Source of the DNA: Promethearchaeota archaeon
GTDB lineage: Archaea > Asgardarchaeota > Lokiarchaeia > Sigyniarchaeales > SOKP01
Direction: 5' to 3'
NCBI GenBank assembly: GCA_019057795.1
Contig: JAHLWS010000074.1
Location: forward strand, 1-64,000
Length of the DNA stretch: 64,000 nt
The position numbers were made by a program, and so were the translations under genes. Position 1 is the stretch's first letter, and every line of letters starts with the position of its first letter. Below are positions 1,935 to 49,434 of this stretch, piece by piece. Below the pieces are notes generated by a model. That model was not told where the DNA came from and searched no databases. It was given only the letters and a program-made list of their open reading frames with translations.

Positions 1935-1956
1935 TTATAGAATTATTAAGAGATAT

Positions 1957-2643: not shown

Positions 2644-2831
2644 GATATCCTATTGAATTGCGTTTACTTAGATATAATAATTCCTTGTAATAAATGAAAG
2701 TAGTAAAAAAAATGTCTGTCGTATTGTAGTTGGAATTTGAAAAAGCGAGTAAAAATAATTTTGATGTAATTGATAATCAATTAAGAAATTTTTTAATAGT
2801 CTAAATAAAATTTGATATATTATTATCTTAC

Positions 2832-3134
2832 TTATTTATTATTTATTACATTACCATTTCCGGATTTGACTAACGACATTAGTTTTTCTTTGTTTTTTAT
2901 GGCGTACTTACGCGGAGAACGAGGGTTATTTTCGACCGATTTTAAGACCCCGTTGTCTTTCAAGTAGATCAATGTTCGGGTGTAGAAGTTGATGGCGCTC
3001 CGATTTGACGGTTGTACCCCGTGTACATACCTAATTTTTTTTACAGTGATTTTGCCGCCATTTTTGTTCGCAGTTATTTCTCGTATCGCGTATAGCGTCT
3101 GATCCAAATATTTTTTCCAAAAATCAGTAAACAA
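2832..3134 (-). CDS. Small winged-helix DNA-binding protein (putative)
   Basis: ITVKKIR..HGV..(recognition helix) RTLIYLKDNGVL..PRKYAI wing pattern; GGAGTGG SD upstream. Confidence 0.6.
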   Translation of the reverse strand: MFTDFWKKYLDQTLYAIREITANKNGGKITVKKIRYVHGVQPSNRSAINFYTRTLIYLKDNGVLKSVENNPRSPRKYAIKNKEKLMSLVKSGNGNVINNK

Positions 3135-7147: not shown

Positions 7148-10100
7148 ATGATTGAAAATAGAACTGATTCCGCGGGTTTTTCCATTGTTCAAAAGGAAGA
7201 TTTAGAGATAATTCGCAAATTGAACAGAGGAAGCTCATTAAAATTGTTAAGAATATCCCAATCTTCTCCATACCACGACATTGAAAGTAGAGAAAAATAC
7301 GAAGAAAAATTATTTCGAGAATACATGGAGAAGCAAGGATTAACTGATGGTTTTCTCGTCTCAAACAAATTGAAGGAAATTCTTGACAATTGCCATCCTT
7401 TCTTAGTGAGATTTATCGAAAACACGTATCGAGAAAAATTTAATCGATATTTCGAGGAGCATCCTGCTATTTCTGAATTATTAGATTATACAGATAGTCT
7501 TAGTTTAGTTGAGATTGCAAGCGATAAAGACAAGTGGATGAAAAGCGTAAAAAACCACGGAATTGACAGAAAGCCAAGCTTTCGCTTATTTAGTTTACTA
7601 AACAAGGTAAGTAAATCAGCGCTAATCTTTGAATATATCGAAAGGCAACATAGGGTAGACATTGATATCTTCTTTTCTAATAATTCCGATATTCAAATGT
7701 TGATTCCTCAAGGCTTTTATCTAAATTTAATAGATTTTTCAGCGCATAATAAAATTATTAATAAGAATCTCAAATTTTGGCAAATTAATGGAGGAAGAAA
7801 ACAAGCCGATGAGGATAAATGGCAAGTCACCGAGGAGGGAAGGCAAGAACTCAATACTCTTCTTAACGATATTGGAACTTCTTACAAAATTTTGAAATAC
7901 CTCGATCTTATTGATATTGCTAAATTAGGAAATGATGAAAGCGAAGCTCAAGAGGTTATCAATGCATCAGAAACTTCTTTCAATATTCTTGAAAAGCGAG
8001 AAAAAAAATCGTCTAGTTCCTATAAAATAAATAGCGATAACACAATTTTTAAGATTTTGATGATTATTGGCTTTTTACTTATTTCTATCGTAATAATTAT
8101 CGCTCCGTCTGCATTCATGTTCACTAACGATATATTAATAGCGTTTAGAATTTTTCAGGTTTTTTTAATTATAATATGCTTATTTTTATTTTATAAAGCA
8201 ATTCCTATTATAGCCGCTTTATCGAAGCATACCACTTCAGAAAGGAAGAATAGAAAGTCATTTATCTTATCTATAGAGCTTGCGTTTCATCGATGCAAAT
8301 CTACCTTATTAGTAGTTTCAGTATTCTTCGTTTTTGGTCTATTTTACGTGTATTTTGTTTACGCGCCACAACATCTTTTTGTACCGGCTATTCTCATTTT
8401 AGTAATAATTTTCCTCGCAACTTTAGGGGACCCAAAGAAAAGAGCAGCGACAGTAATCGGTATTTTTCTGGTTCTTATGCCTATGTTGTTTGTGGTTAGC
8501 TCAATGATCCAGATTGAGACGCCTTTTATGGATTATGGCAGAGTTGATCAAAGCGCTAGGATTGAATCAAGTAACGTCGATTTCTCCACGCTCGATTACT
8601 CTCAAGATTTTAACGCGCTGGAAGAGCTTTCGATCAACAGCGAGTTTGTAGTCCACGCTATAATTAGCACCGAACTTGGAGAATCGGCTATAATGAGGAC
8701 AAGAATAATCCCTGAAGTTATACCAGGCGTTTACGATCATACAAAATCATATATAACAAATTACGATTTCAAGGAATTTATTGAGAGCGGTATGCGCTTG
8801 AAGTACGATGTCTTTTCTGATTATGTAGCTGGACCTTTGATTGACGTAGATTATTACGCTCCTGTCGAGCTAGACAAGCTAAACCTGCTTCCGGGACAAT
8901 ATAGCGTTGAGTTCTCTTACGGTATTAGGACCGGCTGGGGGATGAGAAGCGCCAATCCAGTACAATACACTTTAAATTTAGAGAAAGACAGTTTAGAAAT
9001 CTTGCCTACTAATCCATTCGATTTAGGCGTTGAATACGGCGCGGTATATACCTTCGAAAACATCGGAGAGAATTCTTGGGATTCGTTTTTCGATGGAAAG
9101 TTGGTGAATTCAATTCACGAACCAATTGCAGGTAAGGAAATAGATTTATTCCTCGAGATCGACGATAAGTACGAAAAAATAGCAACCGTAGAGACAGATG
9201 CTAACGGAAACTTTTATCACCACCATAAAATCTACGGTTGGGTCGAAGAAAGGATGCTAGCAAAAATCGAATATAAAAACGGAGAAGATCCGCTCTATAA
9301 AGAATTAGTCCACGAAGAATACGCGGGAATGGAAGAACCAGTAGATGGGAATTGGTTCTTTTTCGATCAGGACGGAGACGGTTACCCAGATTGGAATTAT
9401 TCCTTAATGGATTTGCTCGGACTCTACAGATCTGGAACTATAGGATATTCGATGCCTATACAACCAGATGATTTTACGTTTGTTATAGGTAATTTTTACG
9501 GTCCATATGGGGATCTTGAATTTTCAGATTTAAGCACTTCTACCCTTCAACCAACGAAAGTTGGCGCAAATTATAAAATCGACGTGGAAATAGAATGGAG
9601 CATAAATGACTACGTTGAAAGCGTGGAATATCTTAGATGGGATTATTCTACTTCTGGCTCTCCTTCCGTTGACTTTTCCATTTGGAATTATAATCTCCAA
9701 GTTTACGAGGTTAAGTCCAGTAGTCCTTTCGCGTTGACAAGCGATTATTACGACGAAGCTAATAATTATACCGTAAAGTCTAGAATCGAAAGCACTTTGA
9801 AGGGTTCTACTTACGATCTCTATTTAGATCAGTTAAGAATTGATTACATAATAGGTGCACCTCCAGAACCCCCTCCTGTACTGTTCTTTATGGCCTTATT
9901 TGACGAAAATCAGGGTAGCACGACTAACGATGTCGTTAATGACCTTGTAGGAACCTTGTATGGAAATACCTCTTGGGTTGATGGAAAACATAACTCTTCT
10001 CTCTTTTTTGACGGTTCTGGTCAAGTAATAACAGACGAAGGAACTCCTCAGACTAATTATTTAATGCCTATACAAGAAGCAACTCCTACCGGTGATTTCT

Positions 10101-13100
10101 CTTTTACTTACGGTGATTTTATTTCGACCGCAGATATTGAATTTGATGACGGAAGCGAGACCATTATAAAATCTGATAGAATTGATAATAGTTACCACGA
10201 GATTGGCGTAGTAGTTCAATGGGGACCAGAAGGAAGCGTAGATTCTATGGATTACCTTCATTGGGCCCATCGATATGAGTGGGTCGCAACTCCAACAACA
10301 AACTTTCAGATATGGAACTACGCACTTAACGGTGGAGCAGAAGGTTGGGAAACTGTCTCGCAAAATCCTTTTTCGCTTACAAGCGATTATTACGACGAAA
10401 ATTATAAAGTTAAAGTGCGATATTACGCTCACGCAGATGGTAGGACAAGCGCAATTGATCTGTTTATTGACCAACTTAAGTTAGAATATACAACCACTAG
10501 CGGTGGAGGCGAACCGCAATACCTTGATTTTGATTATGTAGACTTTGGAGACGTGTTAGACGATGTTTTGGGACCCGGAAGCCCCAACGATCAGTTTGTT
10601 ATAACGGGCTGGGTAAATCCAAGTTCGTTTACTTCTAATCAAAGTAGTCGCGGAATTAAAAACGTTTTCTTCTCCAAGGAAAACATAGAAATTGGGATAA
10701 ATGAAAGCGGGTACCTACAAGTATATATGAACACCAATGGCGTAGAAACAACCGCATATTACGGCATTGATAACGCTATAGGAACTAACGCTTGGGTTTA
10801 CGTTGCTCTTCGCTATAATAATTCTGATGTTGACGTCCTCTTAGACGATGTGTGGTACTACGATGCTGTTGGGGCGGTAGCAGAACCTTGGAGCGGAGGG
10901 GGTTCGCTTGTAGATGGAGGCTCGCTTATTATTGGCGCCGAATTATCCGCATATTCTTGCTTTTCAGGTAAGCTAGACGATATTTCGGTGTTTAGGGAAG
11001 CCATCAGCCATTTTGATATAGAAGCTCATAAAGGAGAATTAGGCTCTTTAGAGATAATCGCTACTGTTTCTAAAGAGGATGGTCTTGGTGGGTGGGAACC
11101 AATTACTACTTCAGGAGATATGATGGACGGATATCTGAATTTTGAAATGACCTCAACGGGAAGAGAGATAAATAACACTCAATTTTACCTGTCAGATATA
11201 GAACCTGACTTGCAAAATCCAACACCTCAAGATTGGTCTTTAATTACCGAATACAGTTACGATTCTAATTATTACTCCGCAATATTAAGCAGTCGCGATA
11301 TTCCGGACGACGACTCGTGGTATTTTATTGTGCGGGCAAACGACTCGGATTCAAACGTTTTGTACGACGCGTGGGAAATCTCTGAGACCATTGCATATTT
11401 TGAAATAAATCACTTTTTAGACTCGATTAATTTTACTTATTTAGATACGGATAATAGAATCAGTCAGTATTCTCAGATTGGCGTTATTCCTTTCGATGAA
11501 TTTGAGGAAAGAATTACCCAAATGAATGTTTTTGTGAATTATTCGGGAGATATCGATTACCTTACTACCGTTTCTTATAGCGATTTATATTCTAACTATT
11601 GGTTAATTTATCTTAACGAATTATCCTCTTGGAAATCGGATCAGGGACTTCCTGACGGGGAATACGAAATTAATTTTATCATCGAGGGAAATTTCAGCTT
11701 TTACGGATTTTCAGACGATTATTACTTTAACTATACTTTAGACACTATTACTTACGATTGCTTGGGGCCTACTATGTCTCTGGTTTCGACTTCATTTTTG
11801 GAGGTGACATATGACGATACTCAAGATAGTATAATTGATATAGAAGTGACTTCTCCTGATAACGATTTTTCACACGTTAAGCTATATTATCAATATCAAG
11901 GGCCAAATCAACAATCTTGGAATTATTACGACACCTTTGAAGCAAATAATTCTATTGCCCAAGTTCCTTTCAATTTAATTAATTTAAGGGACGATAACAT
12001 TTCGATCCAGATATTAGGCTTTGATAGCGTGTTGAATAGTAAAATCTTGTACGAATCTAATTACTGGGTCGTAAAAGATATGAACAATCACATGAGTTTT
12101 ACCTTAGAAGGAATCGAGCACGATAAATTGTACGGTTTGGAGGAAAACAAAAGCATCAGGTTAGACGCTAAAATCCAACCTTTCGATAACGACATCACGC
12201 GAGTTGTCGTAGGCACCAATTACGAGACTTTTACCATTTTTAATCCTACCTCGGAAAACGACCATATATATTTTGAAGACGATATTTATCTTAATTCAAC
12301 CTATTACGGCGTTTTTGGTGCGGATTTTGTATATATTCCGATAAACGTAAAATTATACCAGGACGATATATTAATCTCCTCAAAAGAAATAGTAATTACC
12401 GTAATTGAAAATACTTTTGAAGACCAAGTTCAAATTTCAAATATTGTCATAACTACTGATCCTCAAAATAACGTTTTTATGTCTTTTATTTCAGGACTAA
12501 ACGCGTATAACAATTCCCATTCGATCCCTTACGTTATTAGCGGTGCATTCCCTGTCGTAAAGTTATACAACCCCGACGGGATTTTAATTCAAACGATTGC
12601 TTTAAGAGCAAATAACGATACCTACGGGATTGAAACTTATAACACGGGAGCAATAGAAATTAAGAATAATCGATTTACCGTCCCCTTACCAGTTCCCGCA
12701 TCGGGAGAATTGTGTTCCATAGGCGTCGTAAATGTGAACGGAACTGTTTATCCATTTACCTATTTTATTAACAACGACGAACTCTTAATAACGCTATCGA
12801 CCGAGACATCTCTCGATGGAATATACGGCGCTACAGGAGGAGATATTACTATAACTTACGGCGTTTCGTTATCTAACTTACTTGAAAATCAATTTATTGG
12901 AACCTTTGATTTGCAAACACTACCCCAGAATAATTACACTGTTATTGGAGAGTTTTACGAGCTCTCTGGAGATGTGATTACCTATCAAGCATTGGAAGTA
13001 CTCTCCGTTGATTATGATGGACCGATTATGTTTAAACAGTTTGGACACGAAGGTTCTGTTGATTCCTATATTAATCCGGAAGGAGGCTCGATATCGTTTA

Positions 13101-16100
13101 TCGTTAACGACTTTTCGGGAGTTCTTAGCTACGATTTTAACGTTTCAATTAACGGATACTGGGTAATATCAGGCGATTTATTTACATTTTATTTCAACGA
13201 TCCTTCCATTGCAGAAGGATTGACCGATATAGAACTAAATTGTAGCGACGTTAATGGATACTGGAACTTGTTAGCGTTTACGCTATTTATAGATAGGACT
13301 GAGCCTTCATTCGTTTCGGTTGTAAACGATTTAGAGACCTTTAACGCGCTATACTCCGTCATTGTCGAGATTGGTGAGGCATCTACATCTTACGAATTAT
13401 ATCTAACGTGCGTGAACTTTGTATCGGGTATTACATATTCCAATTTAGAGTATACTTTAATCGAAACTGATGCGAATATTTGGCAATTTTTAATGGATAC
13501 CGCTCAATTACCTGACGGGAGGTATAACGTATGCATTACAGTTATTGATGAGGCAGGAAACATAAATCAATATACTTTAGAAGATAGATATTTTGACAAC
13601 TCGCCTCCTGAAATCGAAGATATTTTGGATGTTGTATATGTAAATAGCGATATAAATTATAATACAACTCTTTCCGATCTGGCGTATTTCAACGATGGAA
13701 AGAATATAACCGTTGCGGCAACGGATATAGTGTTTGATGAGTTCGATTGGGCTAATGTAAACCCAACTTTAGGAACTCAAAGCGGCGTAGATTCTATTTT
13801 TCTTTTCTTTACCAATCCATTATCAACTCAAAGACTTGTTATAGAAGGTCAGTTAAATTTTGAAAAACTGACCTATAAAATAGTTGGCTTTGGCAATGAG
13901 ACTGTAAATTACGATACATCTTTAATAAAAGCAATTCAATCAATTACTATTGGAGGATATTCCGTCGATAGATTTGTAATTTTAATCGAAGAAAACGACT
14001 TAATATTACAGATAGACGAACTTTATAGGTATTTATTGTCTTCAAGTAAAACCGATGAAATTTACGCCGAGTTTTTCCAAGCTGAGACTACCGGAGTACC
14101 ATTAGTATTTGATACCGAAAAATTAATTTGGAAGTTAGAAAACTTTAACATTTCGAGTTATCTAAATATCTCGGATGGACAACAATTCCTCTTTTGGTTT
14201 GAGATTAAGGACGGTATGTATACTGCGACAGCAGGAGAAAGGGATGCCAATACAATAATCTCAAGAAAATATCGAGGTATTTACGATAATTTGATTCAGA
14301 AGAATGGAGGTTCCTTGTATGAATGGAGTCTAGGCACAGATGCCCAAGAAAACGGAATTATTGTTTTCGGAACGGATGCTAATATAGATGCAACAATTCA
14401 GTTTAACGGAGCAATGATTCAAGAAAGAATTGCCGGAGAGAGCGACATTGACAAGATTTTCATTTACGGTTCCGAGACGGGCGCTAACTGGGAATTTATA
14501 GGAAGAGCCTATTTCTCGGGAGAAAATATGTTGTGGAATTATTATTGGAATTACGATCTCTTAGGCACAATCCCGCCCCAAAACTACATGTTAAACGCGT
14601 TCTTTTTTGATAAAGCGGGAAATTTCATCAACGAATCTATTAGTATAAAAATTTACGATTTTGCAGATATTGAACTTATAACCGACCTATTGTTCGGAGA
14701 AATTTTCGAGTTTGACGCAAATAAGCAAACTAACATTCAACAAATTGCCGGAACTATAGCAAATTACACGGGTCAAACTAACTTATGGGAGATAATAGCG
14801 GAATATTATAATCCCACTGAAAAGATATGGATTCCGCTCCAGACCGATGCTGCGGCGATCGATGCTGGCGATTATTCCATAATTTGGGATATAAATCAAG
14901 ACGAGTTTATGGACTACATGTACAATTTTACGTACGAATACTTACCCCTTCAAGTAGCACCCGTTACCGGCTTTACAATGTGGGGCTCTTGGGGCACATT
15001 CACAATTGATGGCGAATGGCAACCAATCGTATTAGTACAAGATGGACTCTATGTCGATATTATAATATATACTTTCAACGATACAATTGGTTGGGAAATT
15101 AATAGTACCCTAAGTGGCGAAAATATCTTCACTTACATCGATAACCAATTATTCAGACTCCACGATATCGATAACGACGGTATTTTCGAGATTATCCGCG
15201 TTACATCTTCTCAGGTCGATGTAATCTATCTCGATCAAGGAGTTTGGAAGATTAAAGAGGATGTTGCTCAAATTAGCGACTATTACTATCGTTCGTTTGA
15301 TCTTTTCTTCGACGATGATATAAGCGCGTCTATGATGGTTGCTGTTCAAGAAGACCAATCAGGGCAGCTATTTTTATGGAAATACCAATTTAATTCTACT
15401 TTCTCATTAATTAAGAGTTTAAGCGTTGTTGCTCCCCAAAACTTTATTCCGACCTCAATTAAAATGCTAACAGAGTTTTCGTCCACCTCAAGTAAGGTCA
15501 TCTTAGTAGGTGGCTTAATGGAAGGCTCGTATCATTCTCAATTGTTTGAATACGATTTTAATTTTAATTTACGCAATATTATTGCCGAAGTACTTCTCGG
15601 CAAGATTTCGATCATCGAATATGATTTTATAAACGAAGCGTATACAATTCTACTCGGATTGGAAAGGTTATCGATCGGGAAAATGGACGCCATCGTATCG
15701 CTCACGTATAGCGAAGCTTCCAATTCGTGGAACGCCTTTGAACTCTCGGGATTTGACGAGATTAGATTTAACCTATTAGATTTACTTGTAATTTCCGAAA
15801 TAAACGCCAAAAAACTCATAATCGCTTCCGATTCAGGTCTTTTCGAAACCAAGATTTCTTACGTGGTGGACAAGAGTCTAATTACGAGTCCTGTCTGTTT
15901 TGCAAGCGTTACCGTTTCAAAATATCAGTTACAACAATATATGTCGGGATACGTGTTAAAATTAGAAGAAGAATCCATTAGTTCGATCACTAAAATATCG
16001 TACAAAGAAAACTTACAATGGAAAACTTTGTCTTCTAATCAATACAGATTTTATACAAATTATATTTATATGGTTTTAACAGGTATTTCGTGGAATAATT

Positions 16101-19100
16101 TAGACTTGATTAAAGTGGACTACTCGTTTTTGTCCTATTATGACGAGCAAGTTACATCTATTGACCCTTCTTTAAACGAGGTTGAGGGAACTCCTGACCG
16201 CTCTGGTACGTCCGCTTTTGCTAAGTTCTACGGAAGTTCCGCGCTCCCCTTGTTATGGCTTAACCCCGCCACCTCGTACTTCGATATGAACGCAAATTGG
16301 CTAAGCCTTCCAAATGGAATGACTTATAATCAAAAACCAGTGATCTCCGGTCTTGGAAGCACTGCGTTTTATCCCACGATCTCGACAGTTGGATGGGGTG
16401 CCCCAAATCATTATTACGGTCCCGAATATACCAATATGCCCGAGCTTGACAATAAATTGATAAGTTACGGCGATGGATACGATAACGGATTTTTGGCACA
16501 AAATTTAACCGGAAGGGAAAGTTCAATAGATGATTATAAAGAAGACGAGTTTGCCGGTAGGTTTGAGAGTCAAAGCGATTACATAGATCGGGTCTTAATT
16601 AGCAACCCATTTATAGGAGAGAGCTATAATTTTCCAGATATGTACTTTAGCGGCGTTCACGATACAACTGGAATTTATCACGAATACGATGGGTCTCAAA
16701 AAGTTTTGGTTAGAACCGAACTTACCGATTATAATTTAAATATTGGTGGTATCCTCCAACCAGATCTGTCTCAGAGCGGTCTCTCTATTCAAGGTTCGCT
16801 CCCTGATTCACTCCCTAGTTCTATCTATAAGGATTTTGATTTATTAACTCTTGAAGAACTTGAGAGTTCTTTAGTTAATTGGACCGAATATGTTTCAATA
16901 AACATGGATTCTCCAGGAATTTATGGCGTTGAGTTGACAAGCAAGCTTCCGCTCGTTGATAGAGACGGGTTAGAGTCGATTCAGGTGGCTTTTGACGCTT
17001 CGATCGTTTCAAGTTTTGGAGGCGACGAATATCCACTTTCGTTGCAAATGTACGATTTTATCGATGGAGATTGGGAATCTATTCTTATTACCGACAATTA
17101 CCCTTTCTGGGAGTGGGAGCGCGCATTTGATACGGACTTCGGTGGTTTCAGACCAGGATGGAGAACTGTTCCTAACTCAATGGATAACATGCAAACAATC
17201 AGCTTTGGAGATAACTTCCCTCACACGCTTGTAAGCGGTGATTTTGAGTTTGATAGCACTATTATAGATGGAGGCAACTTTTTGGATAACGATTATAACG
17301 GTGCTACTTTCCAAAGAAACAATTATTATAGTTCTGATAATCAGTTTATATTTTACGATGCTATCACGCACGAATCAAATAGATATCAAATCAATAACAT
17401 AATTATAAATCCTAATAATTTTTATATTCACGAATCTGATGATTTTCCTGATCCAGACCCCGCATTATTTTCCTTAATAAGCGATGAAGATGTTTTTTAT
17501 GCAAATTACATAAACAATGATAATGAAATCAAGATTCGCTTAATAGTTGACAAAGAATCACCCGTAAACGATGAATTTTTCTGTATTGGAAACATGGGTG
17601 TATTCGTTCATACCGATCCCAACTATTTGAATTATGATAATTTTGATTCGAATGTATACGGTTCGGAATCTTCTACGTATCACGTATCCGATAAGATTGA
17701 TTTTGATGTTAACGGTTTAAATCTGTACGGAAATAGCGCCTTTAATTTTAAAGATAGTAGTTATACCAAATACAAGTTTTATGAATCGTTTGAGGGTGGT
17801 ACGCCTTGGAGTTTAAATAGGGTTTCCGAAACAACCTTCCAAGTGTCGTCTACTCCTTCCGATGACGCTTATTCTCTTTTATTTGACGACAGAAATTGGG
17901 GTTCAGAAAACCTTTTGAATGTAGAATATGACAACCCATCAGTGCAGTACTGGACTTGGATTAAGGATAATATTCCTTATTTATACGACGGTTATTATAG
18001 CGATTCAATCCTAACTTTGTACCGACCAACAAACACGGGAAGTGGAGAATTTAGAGTTTACACGGGCGGAGATTTTGACGAGAGCAAGATTAATTGGAAT
18101 AGCGCCCCACCATTACAAGAGTATATCGACTCTTACGCTTTTGGTCAGCAAACGGGTTCGATACAGATTACTTTAGGAGAGCCTTATCCGTATTACGTTC
18201 TCAAACCGATTGACGGAGAAATTTCGTTCGCAAGCTCGGAAAGCTCGTTATATCCAAAACCTCAGTTTGACCATTACTTAACAAAAAGTTATTACGGAAA
18301 CGGAATTACTTACATGCAAACAAACGCGCAGGAAATGCTTTATCTAAAAAGCCCTCTATATGAAGAGGCGATAACGCTAATTTCAGGCGATGTTATTAGA
18401 ATAAAATGTCAAGCAAAAACTTCCAGTGAAATTAAATTAAATCTGTATTATCAGGGAGGAGAACTACCAGAAAAATATATCATTATAAACGGCGGAAACG
18501 ACAATTTTGGCACTCAAATAATTGAAATTAATAACGATAATCCAAATCCTGTAACTTTCGATCGACTTGAGTTTTCTGGAGAATTTAACGCCCAAGATTA
18601 CTTTATTGTAGAAGAAATGACTATTTCTGATCCGACCGACGTAAATCAACTTATTTCGACAGTTTCCAAATACAATTTTATCGACCAAGAAGTTGAGTTA
18701 ATTAATTACAACGAGGGCACTTACCTTGTAGGTAGCGAAGTCGAAGGACACATCGAGGACGACCAATATTGGCAAATTGACGCGGAATTCGTTAAACTTC
18801 AAGATTATCGTATGGAGATAAACATTCCATTTGCAGGGACAGCTTCCCTTGACGATATAGACAATTTAAAAATCAGAATGAAAGCTACTTCTTCGATTAA
18901 CTTAGATCAATTCGTTTTTGAATATTCTACCCCTCAAGGCTATGAAGAACTAGTTCCAGATATTCAAGGAAATGTGGTCACGCTTACTATTTACGATAAA
19001 GACTTTTATAAATTATACGATATTTCTACTCAAGAGTTTTCAATAAAGTTAAAAATACGCGACAACGCTCAACAGACTTCCACTTTTGATTTACATATCG

Positions 19101-22100
19101 ACAGTTTGCACGCAAATGGATTTGCTCAATGGACGGCTACTCACGATCTCTATAGATTAGAAGTCAATTTTAAGCGAACTCATGCCGATTATCCAGACAA
19201 CGAAAAAATCTATTTCATGTTAAACGACCATATAGGTTTTGAAATTGAGGATTGGCGATTAGAGGAAACCGCTAATAACATTGTTGTAGTAGGATACGAT
19301 TATTCTACTAAGATGTGGGAAGCCTATCTTAACGGAGACCTAATTTGGCAGCAGCAAGATTTAGCGCCTTTGAAAATTTCACCCCGAATTAAAACTTCCT
19401 ATACCCATGAACAAAATCACGGGATTTGTATAACCTCGATAGATTCTCAATTTTACAAGCGTATTCGAGACGAGCGAGATTTCGAGACTTATAAATCGTT
19501 GATAGCTCTGTACGACGAGGGGTACGTAAATTCCAGAGATATTACCTACGATAGTTTTCTTACATCGCCTCAGAATACTTTTGCTCATTTATCCTCTAAT
19601 ATTAACGTTATTTATTCGTTTAACGACGAGATGGAAAACAACAACATTTTTAGCTCGCAATTAATCAATCTTGACGTCTCTTCTTCTCAAGACGACGCTT
19701 TTGACGACGTTAACGGATACGACTACAAGGAAGTGGGCATAATTCCCGACCAAATAAGTGAATTAGCTAAGTCTATCGTGGACGGAACTACAGGGTCAGG
19801 ATATTCTCCCGGATACGATCCAGTGACGGGAGCGTTAGTCGGTGATAACGATGATAAATACGGGCCCGTATATGGTACTGGTGATTATGGTACTTATACT
19901 TATCCGGACGATTGGCACGATTCTACGGCGTTCTCCGGTACCGATAATTACGGCGTTAGATTATTTGAAAATTTTATACAAGACATCGTTTATCTCAATA
20001 GCCCCCCTTGGGGAGTAGAAGACGGTACATATAACGATATTTTGTATACCAGGGTAAATAATGGAGAATTCTATAGAGCAAGAAGTACATCTATTGCCCA
20101 TTTGGGACAACAAATTGCAATGCGATTCGATTTCCAAAAAGAATTAGGGGGTATTAATTACAATATCGGTGCTCGTATCGAGACGAGCGACCCTAGTATC
20201 TCAGGTTCGCTTAGAGTGAACGGTGGCGCAATTGCTTCGGGACCCGTTATACAACTTGGTTTAGCTGGAGATAACACGGGTTCAGCAACTATTATAACAT
20301 ATACTGCTGGAGATTTGGATCCTTTCTATGTAGATATTTATTATTTTGAGTTAAAAGCCGATCCTCAAGCAGGTGGTTCATATGGCGTGACGGAACACTC
20401 TGGTTGGAATAATGCCGTAGATGGTTTTGTCCGCAATGGTGGCTATGCTAGAAGCGAGAGCACATTCGCACAAACATACGATTATTATTATTTTGATCTA
20501 ATTTCAACTGATCCTTATAATTTCGGGAGACCCCATTCCGTATATCTTGATATTAATATGTATTATTATTTCGAACCTCGTCAAGGTGCCGAACATTGTT
20601 ATATAGAAGCTTATAATTGGTTCTCACCTGGATGGGAGAATATACAAACCGTTTCCAGACAAGCCAGTTATCAGTACTTTCATAAGGCTATCAATAATGT
20701 ATATATATCGAATAATGGAAATGTTGATATTCGTATTAATGCTTATAGGCGAGACGATTCTGGTTGGTATTCTCCTAGATTTGAGTTGGAAGTAGATATG
20801 ATTAGAATGGATTGGGCCATAGAATGGGAATATTTACCTAGCTCATGGTTCGCATTCGATTTAATTCATCCAGACGGTTCGTTTAACGCGACAAACGATT
20901 ATTACCTTTTCTTTGAAGGGGATGCCAATTACGATTCCGAATTAAGGCTCAATTCTGACGATATTTTTACCTTTAACGGAGAAGATTTAAAATTTGACGA
21001 ATATTTCTATAATTTACAATCGGGCTATGAGTTTAAAATTTGGTTTACTGATGGAAACGATCGCAATCAGTGCGGTAGATATATCAATTCGGATTATCTC
21101 TATCTTTATTGGATAAATCAGAACGTTGATGTAACTATTAATAATCCAGGATTAATCCATTTAGATGATTCACTTTCAGATGATGAGACCCATAAATATA
21201 CAGAGCCGATTAGCTCGGGAGTTTACGACGACCCAATTTTCGGCAAAAACACGGTTCAATTTACCTTAGAAAATTATTTTTCTACTCCAACTTTTGGAAG
21301 GGGTGAATTAGCTGCCGAAACAATTTACAGCGATTTAACATTAAACGACTTTGATTTCACGTTCGACGTATACGGTATCGGTGACCAAGAAGGTTATCCC
21401 GATCCTACAAAAGTGGAAGGGGGAGATCCCTTAAAATACGATCCTGAAGTGCTTCAAGACTCTACATTTTACGATAATAGCAGGTTTAAACTGTCCGCCA
21501 TTGACGACATTCAGATTCCTCTGCTAACCCCAATTGAATTGTATTTTGGCGATGTTAACCCTGAAGATTTTGTTGATATGGATTTAAAGCTTGTTTTCGA
21601 TTACGACCTCTCTCTAAACGGACGGTTAGATCCTAACGCGGAATGGTTGTGGAGATATCGATTCCTTTATTATAACTACGCGACAGAGACTTGGGAGGAC
21701 GTTAACACTATTCTTCAAGCAGAAAATTTTGGAACTACGAGAACAGTTTGGAATTTAGGAGGCACCCATACTTTAAATCCTATACCTTACCTTCAGCAAC
21801 CCAACTTGAATACCTTTATTCCGATAAAGAATTCAAACGATATTCATTTAAATCCGATAACAATTGACAATCTTAACGAGGATACTATAAAAGACGGCGT
21901 TATTAAGTTGGCTCTCATTTCCTACGTTCTTCCAAGTAATGGAAGTTCGTTCTCGTTTGATCGCGCTGATCCGTTTACTCCCATTAGCGTGAGTCAAAGT
22001 ATTGACCTTGTTGAATCGTTATTTATCGGAGAATCCGTTCAGTTGATGCATCCTGATTCAAGCATAGAAACCTCTTTGGAACTTGACTCCGGGACTTATC

Positions 22101-37100: not shown

Positions 37101-40100
37101 AAGGCACAGAATTTTCAATCGTTTACAAGCTAAAATTTGATTTCGAATCAAAAAGTTTCGGAAAGATTACTTTAGGTTATACCAATAATTACAATGAAAG
37201 TTCGATCGAGCTTCAATTACCGGACGGATTCTTACCGGATAGCGATGAAGCCGTAGCTCCTATGTTTACTCGATTTTCAGATAATTTTACGGGCGATGGA
37301 ACCCAAACTCAGTTTATCATGAGCTATGGACTTAGCGGAGTATCTCAATGGGACGGAAATTTCGTTATATATAACGAGGAAGAACTAATCTCCCAATTTG
37401 GAGCCTTTGATGAAGGAGTTTCTTCAGGACATCCTACTATCACTTTTACTGTAAAACCTCCTCCTGCCCAATCAAAGATTAACGTCACTTACGGAGTTAA
37501 ATCTCAATACGATCTTTCTTACGGATTCCAGAAAATCAATAAGTCTTATAGCGATTCAATAAGGCTAATGAGTAACGATGACACATCACCTCAAATAATT
37601 GACGAAGCTGATAGCGGACTGTCCACCCGAGTTCTTGACAATTCGTCTTTGTATATTTCATTGGATAATTCGGAAGAAAAAACAACTCTTAAATTATTAC
37701 AGGTACCTTTATTGTTTGCTCCTGAACTTAATCTTACTTTTACTTTTGATCAAATAGTACTGGATTATATCGAATCTTTTGATAACGATTTTAACAACCT
37801 TACTATCGAATTTAAATATATTACGAAGGATGGATATTACGAATTTTATTCCGACCCAAAAATAATCCCTCTGAATTATTCCGAAATTTCGCCTGATATT
37901 ATAGGTAATAGTTATTCTATTCTGTATAACAAAGACCTTCAGCCAATTTACGACATGGTTGGGACTGATAGTATCGATATTGAAATAACGCTATATCAAG
38001 CGGGAAATAGTGTTAATTACGCTCCATATATAATTTTAGAAGAATTTGAATATCTATCCGATACCCACATTGTTGAGATGTACGATAGAATGCCTCGTGA
38101 TTATTACGGAAACATGGATATAGACGCCGTAATTAATACGCCTCATTACTTCCAAGTATTCTCGAAACCATTAGTCGATTGTGAGTGGGGAGATTCGCCG
38201 TTTAATCTAATAGACGGAAGCGAAGTTACGGTAGGGCTTAAAGGCTTGCCTAACTCTTCCTTAGTTTCTTTAGATTACGATGGAGAGACTTATGGCATAG
38301 ACTATTGGGGTTCGGAGAAAACGCTTCCAGTAAATCTTGAAAATTTCTTTATGATCCCTAACTTGGGAATGTATACAGATACTTACAACATAGAAGAGAC
38401 TTCTTATCAAGACGGATATTTAGACCTCTATTACGGCTCAGGTACGGAAATCGATGGAGAGAAGCTTTATACCTCGACAATCTATATGGATTACGAAAGT
38501 AGTCCAGTCGCCGATTATCGTTCGAGTATTTTAGATAATACTCCAACTTCATGGGCAACAACATTTGATTTTGCTGATAAATTTTTAACCACTTATGAAA
38601 TGGAAGTAGAAGGACGCGTATTCTATCATCAAGTATTTGATTTAGATACGGATATAAACACCACTTCCGAGATGAACGATATCTTCCCTGATTACAATAC
38701 AAATATCTATTTCGGTCTGCAATTACCTTCCGACCTTGATATTGATGAGATTAGAGAGATCGGTTTACCCTATTCGTACGCGTTATCCATTCAAGGATTT
38801 CCAGTCGGAGATTATAAAGACGAATATTGTTTCGCACTCCCAACGGATAGCGGAGATTTCAATCCGACCACCGACCCATATCTACTCGAGAGTGATACGG
38901 AATACGCTTTAGAATTTGACGAATACGGAGCGCCATACATTCTATTCTTTAAACCGGTTGGAGATTTAAGCACTTATACGGACGCTCAAAATAAGATCAT
39001 GATCGATTATTGGGCAAATCACGAATTTATCGATAATCGCGATTATTACATCCACGAAAACCCAATAGACACATTTATTTCGCAGATCGAATGGGATTAC
39101 AGCTACGTAGATACTGACAATTTTAACCTCCACCCCGACTTTACATACGATACCAGCTTTACCGTGAATTATTACGCCTTAGAATGGGAAATTTTCAACG
39201 AGGACTATATTAAAGACGGCGACGATATATTTACCTTCCAACAGAGAGAATTTTACAACATTTCTGTGTTATATACGGGAGATACAAGCACCGATGAATT
39301 TAGCGTACAATATATCGTACCCGAGGGTCAATATTTAGAAGATCATATAATCTTCCCAACTATCTATGCATTGGCTCAGATTGATGACGATGAGGAAACA
39401 ATGAGAGTAATTGAAATTTACAATAGTTTGTTGCAAAATTATATTTCTCAAAATGCTCCTGATTCGTACAATTATACCGTTGATTTCGCCGAAATTGAAA
39501 CTTATATTAATACCTATTTCCCAAGCTATCAATTGGTTGAAAATTCTTTTATGTATATAACCACCGAATATAACTCTACTCTACTGCGATATCCAATGGG
39601 CCATACGCCGTTCAATTACGACTATTTAGGACCAGATCATTACGCCTACCATATCGCTCTATATATCAACGGTGAGTTTATCGCATATTCAAACGAAACC
39701 TTATTTAACGATTACGTGTTAAAAGTTGAAGATAATTATATTTATTTCAATAATAAGTCAAGAGGTCAAGCAGGTTATATCGACCCCGATAGTGAAATTC
39801 AACTAACTTATAAATTTAAACTTCAACCTGGATTACTTGATAGAAAACATTTTATGATAATTACCTATCCGTGGACGAATGTTTTTGAAACTGTTTTTGA
39901 TCCAGTCTTAGGTGACGAACAATTAACTTATAGAGAAAAATATAGAAAATTAAGCGGAGGCTCCATAATTACGCCTTTTGAATATAGCCTTTCTATTAAT
40001 ACGAAATATACCCTTTACTTAAGTTATCGCTTAAATCAGAGAGAATATTACGAAGAACGGTTTGAGATAAAATCCGAGTACTATGACAGCGCTGAAGGCG

Positions 40101-43100
40101 GCTACGTGTATAAATTTATTTCCCAAGAGCTCGATAATTACATCGATGTGCTTGAGGATGAAAAAGGGGATTCTGTTAACGTCTTTTATTTCGATGCTCA
40201 AGGCAAAATGATATTCTTAGACGCTTCTCATTACAAAGTTACTATTGGTTCGAGACAAATAGTTATTAAAAACGATGGAAACGAATTAGTAGCTTCACAC
40301 GGAGAATTTTACGTGTCCTTTATCTCGGACTACAACGATAAAGAACTTTTAAATTATCGCTTTTCTTACGACCCCGCAACGGATATAACAGCAACCTTAG
40401 ATGTAAATTATTGGGATGTTATTGACGCAGAGGGTATAGGCGTTATTCCAAATTTAGACGCGCCTTACTTCATGAACGAAGGAGAGACCACTCTGCAAAA
40501 CGTTGTGTGTCAAGCTTCTCAAATTGCTGCGTATCTTAGCGAAGGAACCAAATTAGAATTTAATTTAGAAGCAGAATTACAGGGATACGACCAACAATTG
40601 CTTGATGGAATACGCGATGGCAACTATTCAGCGCTCTATATTGATACAAATATTAAAAACATAGATAGTTTAGATAATCTTACTATTGAACTCTACGACT
40701 CTTCAGGTATAATGTCTGAATTTTCTCAGAACATGACCAGAGATGAGTTGATAATGTACGACTACAACATCAAAATTAACTTGCCAACAGATACAAATAC
40801 GCTAAAAAAGATTAGACTCGTTCCATTTTTCAGATCAGATAACGAATATAACGCGGATAATACTATAGGCATTAGCAGAATTCAAGCAATGGTCTGGGAT
40901 AATGAGCTTGTTTCCTTCATGGAAGACGATCAAGAGTATATGCACGTGAATTTAGAGCACGATTTAAAGACAGATATAAGCGGATACAAATTAGCTTACA
41001 TTTATAACGATAAATTACAATACCTCGCCTACCCTGACGGTGTTTCGATTACATATACCAAGGATATGGATATATACACTTTACATATTCCAAGCGTCTA
41101 TCTTAACCCTGACACGAACGAAACTACGAGATTTCTGGAAGGGCAAGAAATTGTTTTGCGATACAATTCGCCCGTAAAGAAAGGCATAGCTGTCGGTATT
41201 GGTAAATTATACTTTGAGAACAAAGGATATAATTACGACTCGCATCCAGATATTCCTAAAGCAGAATTATTACTGGTTAACGCTAATTCTTCGGATACCA
41301 ACACTTACGCTTACTCCGAATTTATTAACGATTATTATTATCAAGCCCCAATACAGATAACTCCGTTTGATACCGAATATAACGGCAAATATAAAGCTAT
41401 AAAGATCGATTTGAATATATCCGCTTTATTAGAAGCAGAAGGTCGTTTTGAACTAGATCTCAGTCATATCGTCTTTTCGGTACCGAATCCTTCTTACGAA
41501 TTAACCATTAGTGAAGTACTTATCTTGGAAGAATCGTACAAACCAAACTTACAATATGGAAGTATGGACGAACGGGTATGGCAATATACCGAGGTCGAGA
41601 TGTTTACCGCAAGCGCTAATCCGGAAGAGGATTCTTATCAATTAGCCCTAGAAAACGCCCCGTTATTCTATCCTGATACGGAATGGTTAGATTATCTCAA
41701 TATTTTTGACGAGGATGGCAACTACTATACAGCAGGAATCACAGGAGACGACCATCAATTACATTTCGAACCTTCAACTAACACGTTTACTTGGAACCCA
41801 TCGTTTAACCAGTACCCCGAATATTTCGGCATGGAATTCGAAGAGCCGTTATCGATTGAGCCTAATAAAACGCTTTATTTCGGATACGTCACCAATACCT
41901 CTTGGGCAGAACCGATCCTAATCGAAGCGGAGAACATTGATCTCGATTCTATTCGCGTAATTTACGATTATAACTATCTACTGAAACCGGAGTTTTACGA
42001 TTGGTACGCTACATTGAACCTTAGTGCCCAACATTCCTACGAGAATATCGCGTATTCCTTTAAAGAAGAATCCGAATATAAGGTTGTTCAGTATTATTAC
42101 GAGGAGTTTACCGTATATAGCGACGCTTCTCAATACACCCATACGTTTGATATAGGCGGGCTTTCTTTTGAAAACGATTTTGTCAACTTAAGCGTGTTTA
42201 AAGTGGTTGGTTTAACTCCCACTTTAGAAACCGAAATTTTGACAAATAACGACAATTTTTCGATTAAATTTAATGCAAATACGAAAGAATTAAATATAAC
42301 AGATTTGAACTTAGAAAACGGTTTATTGAATGTTTTTGATCAAATTACTGCTATTTTAAATTATTCATACGGTCCAATTTCTAGCTTTTCCGAGATTTAT
42401 TTATCGCCCGAATTTAACATTACTTACTTAACCGATCCGGAAGAAACCTTCTTTAGCAATGTCGATATCGATTATAACTATCGATCAAAATCGGGCACAG
42501 CTCTATTTGGAGAAGGTTCTGCAACCATTAATAGCGACGATACTTCATTTGTTCCTATTGATTTCTGTCGAAATCCCGATATGAGCACCGATTATCAATT
42601 AAACGGCTACGGTTCGGAGTTATTTGATAATTTTGAGATTTACCAAGACGAAAGCTCTATAATCTACGTAGCAGACATAGATATGGACGGGGAACCTGAC
42701 TATAAGCACACGATCGATGTAGACAAAGACGGAAAGATCGATGTTATTAGATACGGCCTTGACGATCCGCAGGGTTCCGGTGAGATTTATTGGCATACGG
42801 TTATTCAAGATTTTGAAAGTCGAGAAATTAAAGTAAAGCGAGAATTAGAAGAAGAGAAAAGAACCGAATGGTTTGACATAGATGACCGCGCATTTGCCTA
42901 TTACGATTTTAATGTTTTGAAATTACTATCAATTGTACTTGGATTACCTTTGTTATCGTATCATATTGCCAAAATGATGCTTCCCGACGTAGACTATTGG
43001 GCTCAAAAATCTATTCAGCAATTAGTCCAGAAACAGGAGTACGTAAAATCTTCCTTCTACAGCGTGACGATTGATAACGACAGGGATGGCTACACCGATT

Positions 43101-46100
43101 CTCAGATAAATTACGAGAAAACAGACGTTAACATATATTACGATATTAGCGAATATAAGAAAACAATTATTGCTGCCAAGCATCAAGATATCGTTACCTA
43201 TTTAGGAGAGTACATTGCCAAAAGTATAAGTTCCTTATTCACGGGCTCCCGAGACGATCCGATTTTTAACGACCAGTTAACCGAAGCCCATCTCGACTCT
43301 TCCGATTTTGGCTCTTGTAATTTATATACCCAGATGAATGCAGCTGTTTTGAACGCGACATACAGAAAATTCTCTGAATATACCCTCTCGTCTTATATCG
43401 ATACACTTGAGCGCTCCACATTGACCGTAATCGGCTGGAACGAAGGAGAGATCGAAGAGCAAAGGATTTATACGGACGATTTTGAGAACGGAGAGATTGA
43501 AAATGCGGACGACTTTTTCTCGAGCTTATCGGCAGAGCATTCGGTCACCGACATTGACACGGGACAAGAAGTTACCGTTGATTTCGACTCAGAATTTCCA
43601 TACACTCATCCAGCTAATATTAGTTGGGATTGCGAAACATGGGGTCCCGATAACGTTCCTATTAAATACGACTCCTTGCAGGTGATAGGAGAAGATTATT
43701 ATTATGCTACAAATAAATTCGAAAAAGAAATTATTATTAGAATTCCGAATCGATTCTCGTTATACAACGATTTTGGTAAAGTTAGTAAGTTCAGCGTGGA
43801 AGACGGCGGTTGGGTTGAGTTTAAAGTTAAAGGTATGCTTATAACCCCTCCCGATGGTCAAGTATATTATACTTCCGATGTCGATTCCTTTGTTTCCGAT
43901 TCAGCAAAAGTTAGCGGGTTTTACTTCTACGTGGATTCTGATTTGAATGGATTTTTTGAAACAGTTTATATTCTAAACGATTACTATACTTTGGATGCTT
44001 CAGGTACTCCAGTATATACCGTTATGTCAATAGGAATGAATTACGATGGTATTCACGATTTTGCACCCTACGAACGATTATACGACAGAGAGCTCGTAGT
44101 CTCTAATTTCGAGACGTTGACGCAAGAATCCGTCATGTTTGGAAGCGATTGGATTTACAATTTCAGGCACTTAAAGGACGAAGATCTTTTGAAAGAAACC
44201 GAATCTAAATTGGAAGAAAACAACTTAAAACCAAAAGACCAAATATTTGAGATTTACAAACTCGTACAAATGAGCGAGCAAAACAGCGAATTTTCCGAGT
44301 TATTCTACGAAATTAGGCACAAGACTTATTCAACCGCGTGGGAGCAATATAAAGAGCAATTAATAGGAGATATTGCCGAACAAGTGTTCATGTCGGTCAC
44401 TGCCTCCCTTCTTAGCGCGACGGTGGAAGCCATCCTTACCGGAGCCACATTTGGTTTCGGATGGCCAGCTGCTAAAGCTGCTGCGACTTTAACTTATATG
44501 GGAGTCTATACTTTAATGACTAAATTTTACGTCGACATAGACCTCGCCAAAGCAGAAGCTGAAAAGCGCTCTCAATCGTTCTACTCGGTTTCGAGCGAGA
44601 CTCGTGAGCCTACTTCCCTTAACGAAAAAAACGCCTTGGATAGGGTTCTCGGCGATAGCATGGCGGCAGCACTTATAGGACATCCTGGCGGATATTACAC
44701 CGAGGTGAGTGGAGGAGAACCGGGTAATATGTATACAGGTCAGCTACTAGTAAGTCCTCCCAATCTTTTACGCATGCTTTATTCGTTTGAAGGCTTTTTA
44801 GATTTACTTTGGGAAAACCTCTGGAGCATGGGAGAATCGGACCCCGATGTTTACGCCGCTCTCGATTTTGACGACATTAATTTGGATTACTTTTTACTCA
44901 CTAGCGAATTACCCTCTTACAATCAGAACCCCTATTACACCTACGAGAACGCGGACGGTATTTTTGATTTGTACAACATGTATGCCCTAAACACCTTAGG
45001 CTACCTCGAAACTCAAGTAAGTCAAGCTTCTAACGGGCAGTACGACGCAATTCGAGCGACCTGCATAGACGGAAGACCACAATACGAGTTTATTAATAGC
45101 ACCTTGTACCAAGCAGTAAGACCGCAAAGCGTGTTATATAGACCGATCGTGTTAAGCCAAGAAAGGTACGACCAACTACAACCAGCGCCCGGTAGTTTAG
45201 TAGTAAAAGCCCGATGTAAAGATTATAGCAACACTATCGGAATAGACGCTTACGCAATGGGCGATGTGGAGCGCGAGGTGTACGCGGCAAAAGTTCCGCT
45301 CAACGACAACGGTTTTGAGTACCCTATTCGACACATTTCAATTGACGTGGTAAAGTACAACATTTACACCGGCTTCAGTTATTTTGTTAAGGGTCTTATC
45401 GTGAACGAGTCGGATTATTCTATCGATCTTGGCAACCTCTATTTCGCGAAATCCATCGAAGCGATCGTATCGGAAAAACATAGCGGGTTCGAAGACTTTT
45501 TAAGCTACGCGTTAGCACACGAAATAATAGAATCGAAAATTTACTTTAACATTCACATAGTTTTTGACGTGTTTATCCCCGACACCACTGAAGAGACAAG
45601 CAGGTTGGCTTTAGCCCAAGCAACATCCCATACAATCATGGATTATTTTAATCAGTACGTTTTTGCGGAAGTTTCGGCTAATTCTATTTCAGAGATTGCC
45701 TACACAGAGACTATGACTTTCTGGTCTACTTTAATCAGCGCTCCCCTCGTGTATTTCGGCTCCTGGGCTATAAAAGGCACGGATAAGATGATGGGCGAGG
45801 CATCAGTAAAGTTAATTAAAGCGGGGGAAATAACTAGAGGACAAGCGATTAAACAAATGCTACTTAAATCATTTGCCGGCATGGCTCTAAGCCCCATTAA
45901 AGAAGTATTTGAAGAAATCATTAAAGACGGGTTTACTGAAGCGTTAGCAGAGAATCTCATCGACATGGCGGGAGGAACGGACGACTTAGGTTTCTGGGTC
46001 TCTTCCTTTATTACTTCCAGAAGAGAAACTACGGGAGCGTTAGGACAATTAGCGCTCGGAGACGCCAGCGTAGCTTTCGGGGACGCCAACCTAAAGACAA

Positions 46101-48451: not shown

Positions 48452-48457
48452 TACTCC

Positions 48458-48470
48458 TTTTTTTTATATA
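48458..48470 (+). promoter_or_regulatory. T8 terminator of the giant gene overlapping a TATA box (TTTATATA) for the LRR gene
   Basis: T8 at 48458-48465, TTTATATA at 48463-48470, GGTGA at 48494-48498, ATG at 48514. Confidence 0.5.
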
Positions 48471-48513
48471 AGAATAAGAAATTCTTTTTTATTGGTGATA
48501 AAAAATTCATATT

Positions 48514-49434
48514 ATGTCGGAAGAACATTATTATTGGAACGAAATATTTTTTGAAAAATGCGGCATTGTATTATCAGAATATCAAAACGATAGAAACATG
48601 CTAAATAAAGCGATTTTAGAGAGACATTTAGACGATCTTATTAATCTTGCAAACAGGTCAGGCGATATATCCGCCCATCAGACGCTTACGGTTTTAATCC
48701 TTCAAGTAGGCGCGAAATTGCCGAACGATTTAAAAGAGAAAGTCTTAGAATCTTTAGAGTGGGAAAACGACAACAAAAGATATCACTGGTCTTCTTTCGT
48801 TGTTAACGTTAGAAAAGTTTATTTAGAAGATTTCAGGCAAAAAATTCTTAGTTACAGAAATAATAACATATCTTTTTTAATTAATCTAAGAAGAATCCAC
48901 GACGATAAGAAATTAGAAAAGACATTAATAGGCTTAGAACAGCTTAACTCTTTCTCAAGGTTAAGAACATTCGAAAAGATAGATTATATAAATTTGGATA
49001 GTTGTAGATTGGCCGACATGCCCGAAGAAGTATTTAGGTTTTCAAATCTTTCTGCTTTAAGCTTAGATAATAATTTCCTAACCACATTGCCGGACTCAAT
49101 AATAAATTTACATAATTTAAAAAAATTGTATTTAATAAACAATAAGATTAAAATCCTTCCATCTAGTATAGGAAGTTTAACTTCATTGGAATCGATTTAT
49201 TTGTCCTATAATCAGATAGAAAGTTTACCCTCTTCACTTGGAAATCTTAAGAATCTTAGATCGTTATATTTAAATAATAACAATTTAAAGTCAATTCCAG
49301 ATACATTCAGAACTTTAAATTTGAATATCTTTAATTTGCGAAATAATCGTATAAAAGATATTCCTGTTTTTTTAAAGGAGAGTTCTAAATATAAAAAAGT
49401 ATTTTCTACTAAAGCTTTCTTAAACAAAGAATAA
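48514..49434 (+). CDS. Leucine-rich repeat protein with an N-terminal helical domain (candidate immunity protein)
   Basis: About 6 LRRs of 23 aa (LxxLxLxxNxLxxLPxSIxxL) in the C-terminal half; no signal peptide; 62 nt downstream of the giant gene. Confidence 0.85.
   Translation: MSEEHYYWNEIFFEKCGIVLSEYQNDRNMLNKAILERHLDDLINLANRSGDISAHQTLTVLILQVGAKLPNDLKEKVLESLEWENDNKRYHWSSFVVNVRKVYLEDFRQKILSYRNNNISFLINLRRIHDDKKLEKTLIGLEQLNSFSRLRTFEKIDYINLDSCRLADMPEEVFRFSNLSALSLDNNFLTTLPDSIINLHNLKKLYLINNKIKILPSSIGSLTSLESIYLSYNQIESLPSSLGNLKNLRSLYLNNNNLKSIPDTFRTLNLNIFNLRNNRIKDIPVFLKESSKYKKVFSTKAFLNKE

Follow-up and report, generated by a model that had tools for sequence, protein, structure and literature searches.

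Giant proteins with exchangeable tips and linked partner genes suggest a polymorphic toxin system in Loki-type Asgard archaea

Among the closest described counterparts of the locus reported here, a gene for a protein of 13,767 amino acids (aa) and the leucine-rich repeat (LRR) gene that follows it in a Promethearchaeota archaeon of the Loki type, are the polymorphic toxins of bacteria. The locus lies in the first 64,000 nucleotides of contig JAHLWS010000074.1 (assembly GCA_019057795.1), the stretch of DNA analysed in this study, which we call the window. In the CdiA/CdiI systems a cell-tethered filament carries a receptor-binding region and a VENN pre-toxin motif, and modules of toxin C-terminus and immunity gene also occur as orphans. 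The wider survey of polymorphic toxins (PMC3482391) includes Tox-URI1 tips, with the signature Y, YxG, R, [RK]xxE, N, and LRR immunity proteins beside toxins of the type V secretion system; it pairs Tox-URI1 with Imm14/26/44/51, not with LRR proteins.

Within the archaea, the VARTIG proteins of Thermococcales (PMC8416519) combine a hypervariable C-terminus with variable downstream genes, the variable end being an Ig domain and not a nuclease, and the phage-tail machine of the haloarchaeal contractile injection system (PMC11566945) establishes that archaeal contact-dependent antagonism exists. Giant genes and proteins of Asgard archaea are listed without function in PMC8813620 and PMC11573180, the former describing the aloposons Otus and Ephialtes of Heimdallarchaeia as elements that have genes of 3,000-6,000 aa in tandem, integrate at tRNAs and carry a MinD/ParA ATPase. 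We found no paper describing the present system; a 2019 mBio survey of archaeal polymorphic toxins lay outside the coverage of our search.

Our analyses indicate that the giant gene and its partner very probably belong to a polymorphic toxin system which Loki-type Asgard archaea most likely direct at related cells. Such a layout was proposed in the original prediction, made from the letters of the sequence, on the basis of a 13,767-aa open reading frame (ORF) and a 306-aa ORF 62 nt downstream. Both frames are present (7148..48451 and 48514..49434), and variable tips, linked partners and standalone cassettes now support the proposal. The parts of the locus are as follows; TM denotes transmembrane segments, HTH helix-turn-helix domains, and sequons are N-x-S/T glycosylation sites.

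7148..48451, + strand: giant gene, carrier plus exchangeable tip; a single unbroken ORF of 13,767 aa
7148..8044, + strand: N-terminal domain, aa 1-299, presumably cytoplasmic; precedes TM1; 3 sequons against 2.8 expected
8045..8509, + strand: five-pass membrane anchor, aa 300-454; hydropathy peaks 2.4-3.1
8510..42600, + strand: acidic stalk of ~11,400 aa, presumably extracellular, with LamG/ConA-like lectin, Ig-like and CBM-like modules; sequons present
42674..43108, + strand: three DxDxDG loops, probably Ca-binding; an N-truncated paralogue (C66) begins here
44297..44575, + strand: Gly/Ala-rich long helical hairpin 1 of a conserved module; AlphaFold H45-137, pLDDT mostly 80-90
44693..45574, + strand: conserved alpha/beta domain between helical blocks; no fold match
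45590..46327, + strand: long helices plus hairpins 2, mildly hydrophobic in some segments, sequon-free (model and family profile)
46787..47089, + strand: helical pre-tip domain ending in the boundary motif; domain found in 14 tips
47393..47725, + strand: GIY-YIG nuclease domain; Y13420, Y13439-x/G13440, R13449, E13509, N13526
47744..48397, + strand: DNA-binding part, a single HTH and then an AraC-like double HTH (structure alignment)
48452..48513, + strand: 62-nt spacer that every close cassette conserves; contains a T8 run and motifs resembling TATA and GGTGA
48514..49434, + strand: candidate immunity protein of 306 aa, a tip-specific helical N-domain of ~140 aa plus LRRs (LRR_8, E 1e-27)

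Exchangeable tips and their partner genes

Of the 135 genomes in one family of Promethearchaeia (Loki), 50 contain the scaffold, against 3 of 265 other genomes of the phylum. Homologous open frames in the family span 9,240-20,619 aa, and equally long frames in many genomes rule out a frameshift or assembly artefact. Named relatives belong to Promethearchaeia/Promethearchaeota, that is, to Loki-type Asgard archaea; a short contig placed in an actinomycete bin is probably mis-binned. In a different family of the phylum the module recurs in an open frame of 11,809 aa (L174, G211:C57), whose tip runs off the contig.

Comparison of loci shows tip exchange at a fixed junction, a conserved boundary motif, ERIIMDVASFYMGG, which lies at 47048-47089 and was found in 12 tips. 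The same genome holds two paralogues of the pre-tail region, an 11,241-aa giant (C77) and an N-truncated gene of 2,033 aa (C66). The latter is 87% identical to the window at the DNA level from 42612 to 46639; beyond that its tip is HNH-like and its LRR gene differs from that of the window. In another species, a locus is 84% identical up to 47088 and then diverges, and DNA similarity to other loci either ends at 47088 or begins at 47055-47115.

The tips themselves are diverse, with 130 of them falling into 49 clusters that include GIY-YIG, HNH-like, Cas4-like and Vsr-like PD-(D/E)xK, LAGLIDADG and BECR-type RNase classes and many unnamed ones. Hidden Markov models of motifs, run on 57 tips, recognised 15 as HNH-like, 6 as Cas4-like and 3 as Vsr-like. 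The LAGLIDADG tip scored above cut-off, PBECR1 was matched at E 3e-4, and matches for PD-(D/E)xK and GIY-YIG were weak; several classes are assigned by motif alone. At the motif level we also noted a P/AxCxxC motif recalling deaminase toxins in the last 100 aa of P0058 and P0155, an HExxH motif in the L087 tip and a Cys/His pattern in the L053 tip.

Five tips carry an S26 peptidase domain, one of them above the TIGR02228 cut-off, and five have a ubiquitin/ThiS-like domain ahead of the warhead, which suggests built-in processing of these tips. The tips concerned are L045, L043, L057, L083 and L087 for S26 (Ser and His intact) or L038, L039, L047, L049 and L069 for the ubiquitin/ThiS-like domain. 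The latter domains are followed by Ala-rich motifs. Both kinds of domain lie between scaffold and warhead and are candidate release mechanisms.

The gene behind the tip is not a random neighbour. An LRR gene follows 31 of 55 tips, whereas the same search pattern identifies only 27 LRR genes among the 4012 genes of this genome, which rules out adjacency by chance. A small two-CxxC protein follows nine more tips and other small families the rest; LRR proteins are one of several partner types. A check suggested with the original prediction was whether the C-terminus and the next gene vary while the helices ahead of the toxin stay constant. This is what we see, and the next gene tracks the tip: 40 pairs are alike in both, against 7.4 on permutation (maximum 22 in 2000), a contrast that the permutation test overstates, the genomes being related. 

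The window tip has five close relatives, in five unrelated neighbourhoods, and all five have an orthologous LRR gene 60-62 nt downstream with the spacer conserved. The T8 run and the TATA-like and GGTGA-like motifs of that spacer suggest that the partner has its own promoter. Four of the five relatives are orphan cassettes that start at or just past the boundary motif. The original description of the partner as an LRR protein without a signal peptide agrees with its LRR_8 match and with the lack of any signal or TM segment visible in its sequence. Homologues of its N-domain stand beside two other GIY-YIG tips, once convergently, and nowhere else in this genome. Linkage of tip and partner is observed, and the LRR protein would bind and neutralise the tip; a complex prediction of the two scored 0.00 and was counted neither for nor against binding.

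Tip remnants with partners were found on three contigs of this genome (C43, C31, C5). Partner genes also stand alone (C34, C46, C56, C58, C82), 44-73% identical to the partners of other species, and no tips matching them were found in this genome. Seen in the light of bacterial orphan immunity genes, these lone partners would point to related Loki cells as the targets.

Two further partner families deserve mention. Behind the second giant lie two tandem 113-aa two-CxxC paralogues (C77:101570-102302); members of this small Zn-finger-like family are the partners of most HNH-like tips and also occur singly on C46 and C82. In nine long tips (L051, L060, L063, L068, L074, L076, L078, L079 and L084; 1550-1850 aa) no enzyme domain was recognised; behind them, mostly in convergent orientation, stands one LRR family that has a conserved, HCSN-containing N-domain and many lone copies in this genome.

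Glycosylation-site avoidance, topology and the helical module

Oligosaccharyltransferase modifies N-x-S/T on the outer face of the membrane, and an STT3/AglB gene is present in this genome. Across 57 tips (64,307 aa) we counted 2 sequons against 471 expected, both within 5 residues of the C-terminus; a partly overlapping set of 72 tips gave 4 against 470. Reversed and shifted motifs occur at expectation in the tips, and N-P-S/T, which cannot serve as a site, is over-represented (36 vs 15). Observed/expected ratios elsewhere are 0.93 for cytoplasmic ORFs, 1.34 for membrane ORFs, 0.87 for partners and 0.86 for the free-standing GIY-YIG/HTH relatives described below. No sequon at all is found in 55 of the 57 tips, compared with 4 of 248 long cytoplasmic proteins. 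The window protein has none beyond aa 12820, and the avoidance spans both helical blocks and the tip, sparing aa 12600-12800.

A cytoplasmic protein would have no reason to avoid sequons, which argues that the tip is exported. Most simply read, the counts mean that helices and tips leave the producing cell and have to stay free of sugar in order to enter a membrane and pass through it, as would fit threading into another cell. If so, sequon avoidance offers a reusable way to find exported-then-imported proteins wherever N-glycosylation occurs.

These counts contradict the alternative offered in the original prediction, in which the helices re-enter the producer's own membrane and leave the nuclease in its cytoplasm; a permanently cytoplasmic nuclease was rejected in view of the near-total avoidance. 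That alternative is a sub-case of self-directed defence, in which an exported tip would be pulled back into the producer on contact with a virus or predator (abortive infection) and the LRR protein would act as a tunable antitoxin. The tethered receptor-like stalk, the hydrophobic helices ahead of the nuclease, the defence-like diversity of effectors and the island location would all suit such a role. We nevertheless regard it as very unlikely: besides the sequon argument against a cytoplasmic tip, self-delivery would be cancelled by the cognate inhibitor in the cytoplasm, the account does not explain why there are orphan cassettes or lone partners that fit foreign tips, and PADLOC returned no match.

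Export as such would also be expected of a stalked extracellular enzyme that scavenges DNA or RNA or remodels biofilm, or of an adhesin whose end collects selfish homing-endonuclease insertions in a lineage rich in mobile nuclease genes. Exported proteins here are, however, enriched in sequons (the 1.34 above), not depleted. Exchange at a fixed in-frame junction also speaks against these proposals, as does a dedicated cytoplasmic partner that follows the tip and not its free-standing relatives, and we find them highly improbable.

Five strong TM segments, an odd number, and basic inner loops suggest, by the positive-inside rule, an N-in, C-out anchor that would place the remainder of the giant outside. 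The multi-pass anchor originally described is borne out in the window protein; it is not fixed in the family, one homologue having a single N-terminal hydrophobic segment and others many. The domain ahead of it is not conserved either, as BLAST matches to homologues mostly start beyond aa 290. Adhesin-like modules had been read over more than 11,000 aa, and Pfam matches in the stalk agree (Laminin_G_3, E 1e-46 and 9e-9; an Ig-like Big_13, weak). No Pfam or NCBIfam match to CdiB/TpsB, haemagglutinin repeats or VENN was found along the giant or its neighbours.

The helical module may be the delivery device. At a Kyte-Doolittle (KD) cut-off of 1.4, two of the three hydrophobic helices listed by the original prediction stand, at 44371-44527 (KD 1.6) and 46244-46327 (KD 1.7). 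The third, at 45716-45773, is only mildly hydrophobic and falls below the cut-off, with a family mean of ~0.8; a further segment lies at 42914-42979 (KD 1.8). All of these are weaker than the N-terminal TM segments (2.4-3.1). Hairpin 1 is sequon-free across the family (~1 vs 18 per bin), and helices/hairpins 2 would form a membrane-inserting or translocation block. The second half of the intervening alpha/beta domain (aa 12600-12800) probably stays outside, because sequons are tolerated there.

Modelled as 771 aa (pLDDT 78), the module consists of a long hairpin, the alpha/beta domain and further long helices. Searched as one model, it has no PDB sequence, PDB fold or Atlas fold match, and none to colicin, diphtheria T, TcdB or CdiA FHA-2/PT by PDB sequence or fold; its best fold score, Z 7.5, is to generic hairpins. 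A profile search of 1.84 billion proteins recovered 282 relatives, none of them in the PDB.

The nuclease tip, its free-standing relatives and the neighbourhood

The GIY-YIG-like domain recognised in the original prediction has the expected fold, with its catalytic residues intact. Model residues 22-130 align to the catalytic domain of I-TevI (1ln0) with Z 8.0 and rmsd 2.5 A over 88/92 residues, and T4 EndoII and UvrC are also among the fold matches. Foldseek, one of the checks that had been suggested, gave no significant match on its own; a wider aligner found the fold. Atlas features rank GIY-YIG plus HTH proteins first for the tail, and searches of Pfam, NCBIfam, PADLOC and PDB sequences did not name the tip. 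The Arg (47492) and Glu (47672) proposed for mutation correspond to R13449 and E13509, both conserved in the family, and the Y, YxG, R, E and N of the tip fit the Tox-URI1 signature of PMC3482391. What had been described as HTH-like repeats proved to be a single HTH (aa 13533-13582; resolvase HTH, Z 5.5) and an AraC-like double HTH (aa 13640-13750, 48065-48397; AraC-family chains, Z 8.5-10.9). Fold and catalytic residues are thus in place in the model, from which we infer that the tip cuts DNA. It looks like a captured protein of the homing-endonuclease type, not a minimal colicin-like nuclease.

A micro-domain of ~30 aa (47102-47221) lies just past the boundary motif and has ~9 other copies in the genome, including free-standing nuclease-like genes and one LRR protein.

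Relatives of the window tip, 30-40% identical over the nuclease and HTH parts, are found as free-standing genes in ribosomal-protein, oxidoreductase and other operons. Their presence is sporadic, and this genome mostly lacks an insertion at those operon sites. None of 15 free-standing relatives has an LRR neighbour, and sequons are not avoided in them. Judged by their sequences and distribution, they behave like homing endonuclease genes. One free-standing GIY-YIG/HTH gene of this genome (C21:95932-97677) lies between genes for 2-oxoacid oxidoreductase subunits at a site that is also occupied in G132, and is probably such a gene. In a tree of both groups the tips take several positions (5 changes) with weak support, the row for L035 being mis-cut; the tree is compatible with several recruitments or one origin. 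It is tempting to speculate that a tip with a retained site preference, cutting a conserved operon, would kill a non-immune neighbour.

The same features raise the possibility of kin signalling or gene drive, in which the delivered tip would be a site-specific nuclease or DNA-binding regulator that makes a single break promoting recombination or spread of the island, or that alters gene expression in siblings. The tip keeps a full homing-endonuclease layout (GIY-YIG, HTH and AraC-like HTH pair) and is 37-40% identical to free-standing genes sporadic in housekeeping operons, and several giants stand beside ParB-like and primase-like genes, one of them ending at a tRNA. Yet the same scaffold also carries BECR-type RNase and other tips that do not home to DNA, no conjugation or DNA-transfer genes were seen nearby, and hoarded lone partner genes imply a cost of being hit. 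We therefore judge this account unlikely.

Two neighbouring genes lie upstream of the giant.

3934..4509, + strand: winged-HTH regulator-like gene (weak HTH_5)
4778..6628, + strand: 616-aa protein with N- and C-terminal hydrophobic segments; no Pfam or Atlas match

The gene for the 616-aa protein is conserved upstream of 7 of 14 giants examined (30-37% identity, E<1e-78), in six cases ahead of giants other than that of the window and in either orientation; it is possible that the protein has an accessory role, is a receptor or acts in surface exclusion. Many giants have small HTH-like genes at their flanks, and it often looks as if the giants were carried by integrated elements. Further upstream, window positions 717-3134 hold ParB-like, RNase III-like and small HTH genes, several of them common to two giant loci of G105, and other giant loci (among L164, L166, L172, L178 and L181) add a primase-polymerase-like and small exonuclease-like pair. 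In G105:C24 a giant of 13,858 aa and its LRR partner are directly followed by a tRNA-His (L183:18534-18602), which may mark an integration site. Positions 1-618 of the window recur in this assembly at C55:42010-42627 with 96% identity, and the contig was probably broken by this repeat.

A proposed mechanism and comparison with known systems

We propose that the giant would be threaded out co-translationally by Sec and retained by its N-terminal anchor, and that its glycosylated lectin/Ig stalk would reach and bind a neighbour. The helical module and tip would pass the exterior oligosaccharyltransferase without sites to modify, a step that the sequon counts partly support. The helices may then enter a membrane and let the tip thread into the cytoplasm of the neighbour, and cleavage close to the boundary motif would probably come first; the window tip lacks the S26 peptidase or ubiquitin-like linker present in some other tips. 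Once inside, the GIY-YIG/HTH tip would cut the recipient chromosome, while the co-inherited LRR protein would bind and neutralise it in the producer and its siblings. The comparisons of loci indicate that tips and partners move as cassettes at the fixed junction and that orphan cassettes and lone partners accumulate. Sec export, adhesion, membrane insertion, cleavage, killing, neutralisation and contact dependence are presumed steps of this scheme; tethering is predicted, and release by cleavage would remain compatible with it.

Several points, in addition to the relatedness of the genomes, weigh against the toxin interpretation. Searched as one model, the module matched no known translocation domain in sequence or fold, so membrane entry is argued from its hydropathy, its helical hairpins and the avoidance of sequons. 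At 450-1850 aa and with several DNA-binding domains, the tips are unlike the compact warheads of bacteria, and in many of the long ones no enzyme domain was recognised. One LRR family stands after many unrelated long tips, often convergently, and pairing is not always one-to-one. Finally, assembly contamination is 7.5%, and the same-genome paralogues could include a co-binned strain.

A more ambitious version of the toxin interpretation could equally well prove right or wrong. It would see contact-dependent kin warfare by a lineage-specific tethered injector of up to 20,000 residues, with the helical module as a new translocation fold, warheads repeatedly recruited from homing endonucleases of the host and purged of glycosylation sites, and LRR proteins diversified as intracellular sensors or inhibitors of incoming foreign proteins.

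To our knowledge, little has been learned of how Asgard archaea fight or recognise each other. The present analysis offers, for a large fraction of the Loki giants, a role that can be tested and a putative delivery module that resembles no known secretion system. In the closest lineage to eukaryotes, proteins may be delivered from cell to cell and self may be distinguished from non-self, and the family supplies dozens of nuclease/partner pairs, including LRR scaffolds as candidate nuclease inhibitors.

Likeness to CdiA/CdiI lies in the predicted tethering, in a boundary motif in a VENN-like role and in the orphan cassettes; the host is a single-membrane archaeon and no sequence relation was detected. 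With I-TevI and the free-standing GIY-YIG homing endonucleases of the phage Seg type the tip shares the catalytic fold and the modular nuclease-linker-HTH layout. Unlike them, it sits on a presumably exported carrier, is stripped of sequons and is paired with an LRR gene.

Like the aloposons, as far as the available part of PMC8813620 describes them, the giants are encoded on Asgard islands, have ParB-like neighbours and include one homologous locus that ends at a tRNA. That part of the source describes no toxin tips for aloposons. Membership was rejected by comparison with it, the window holding a single 13,767-aa gene and no tRNA on the contig. A tRNA was found in the downstream flank of one of four homologous giants examined, and the 7 kb of contig upstream of the window giant, where aloposons would have a MinD/ParA-like ATPase, contain only a ParB-like gene. 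The window locus also has no phage-tail machine, unlike the haloarchaeal contractile system (PMC11566945).

The closest correspondence is with the polymorphic toxins of bacteria (PMC3482391), which share a trafficking N-terminus, a long repeat body, a variable C-terminal nuclease, an adjacent partner and standalone cassettes. The giant departs from them in its Asgard host, its N-terminal multi-pass anchor, its predicted glycosylated LamG/Ig stalk, a delivery module without a homologue and tips of 450-1850 aa with DNA-binding arrays. While not a member of the contact-dependent inhibition, Rhs or aloposon groups, the system has the genomic features by which polymorphic toxin systems are defined (PMC3482391).

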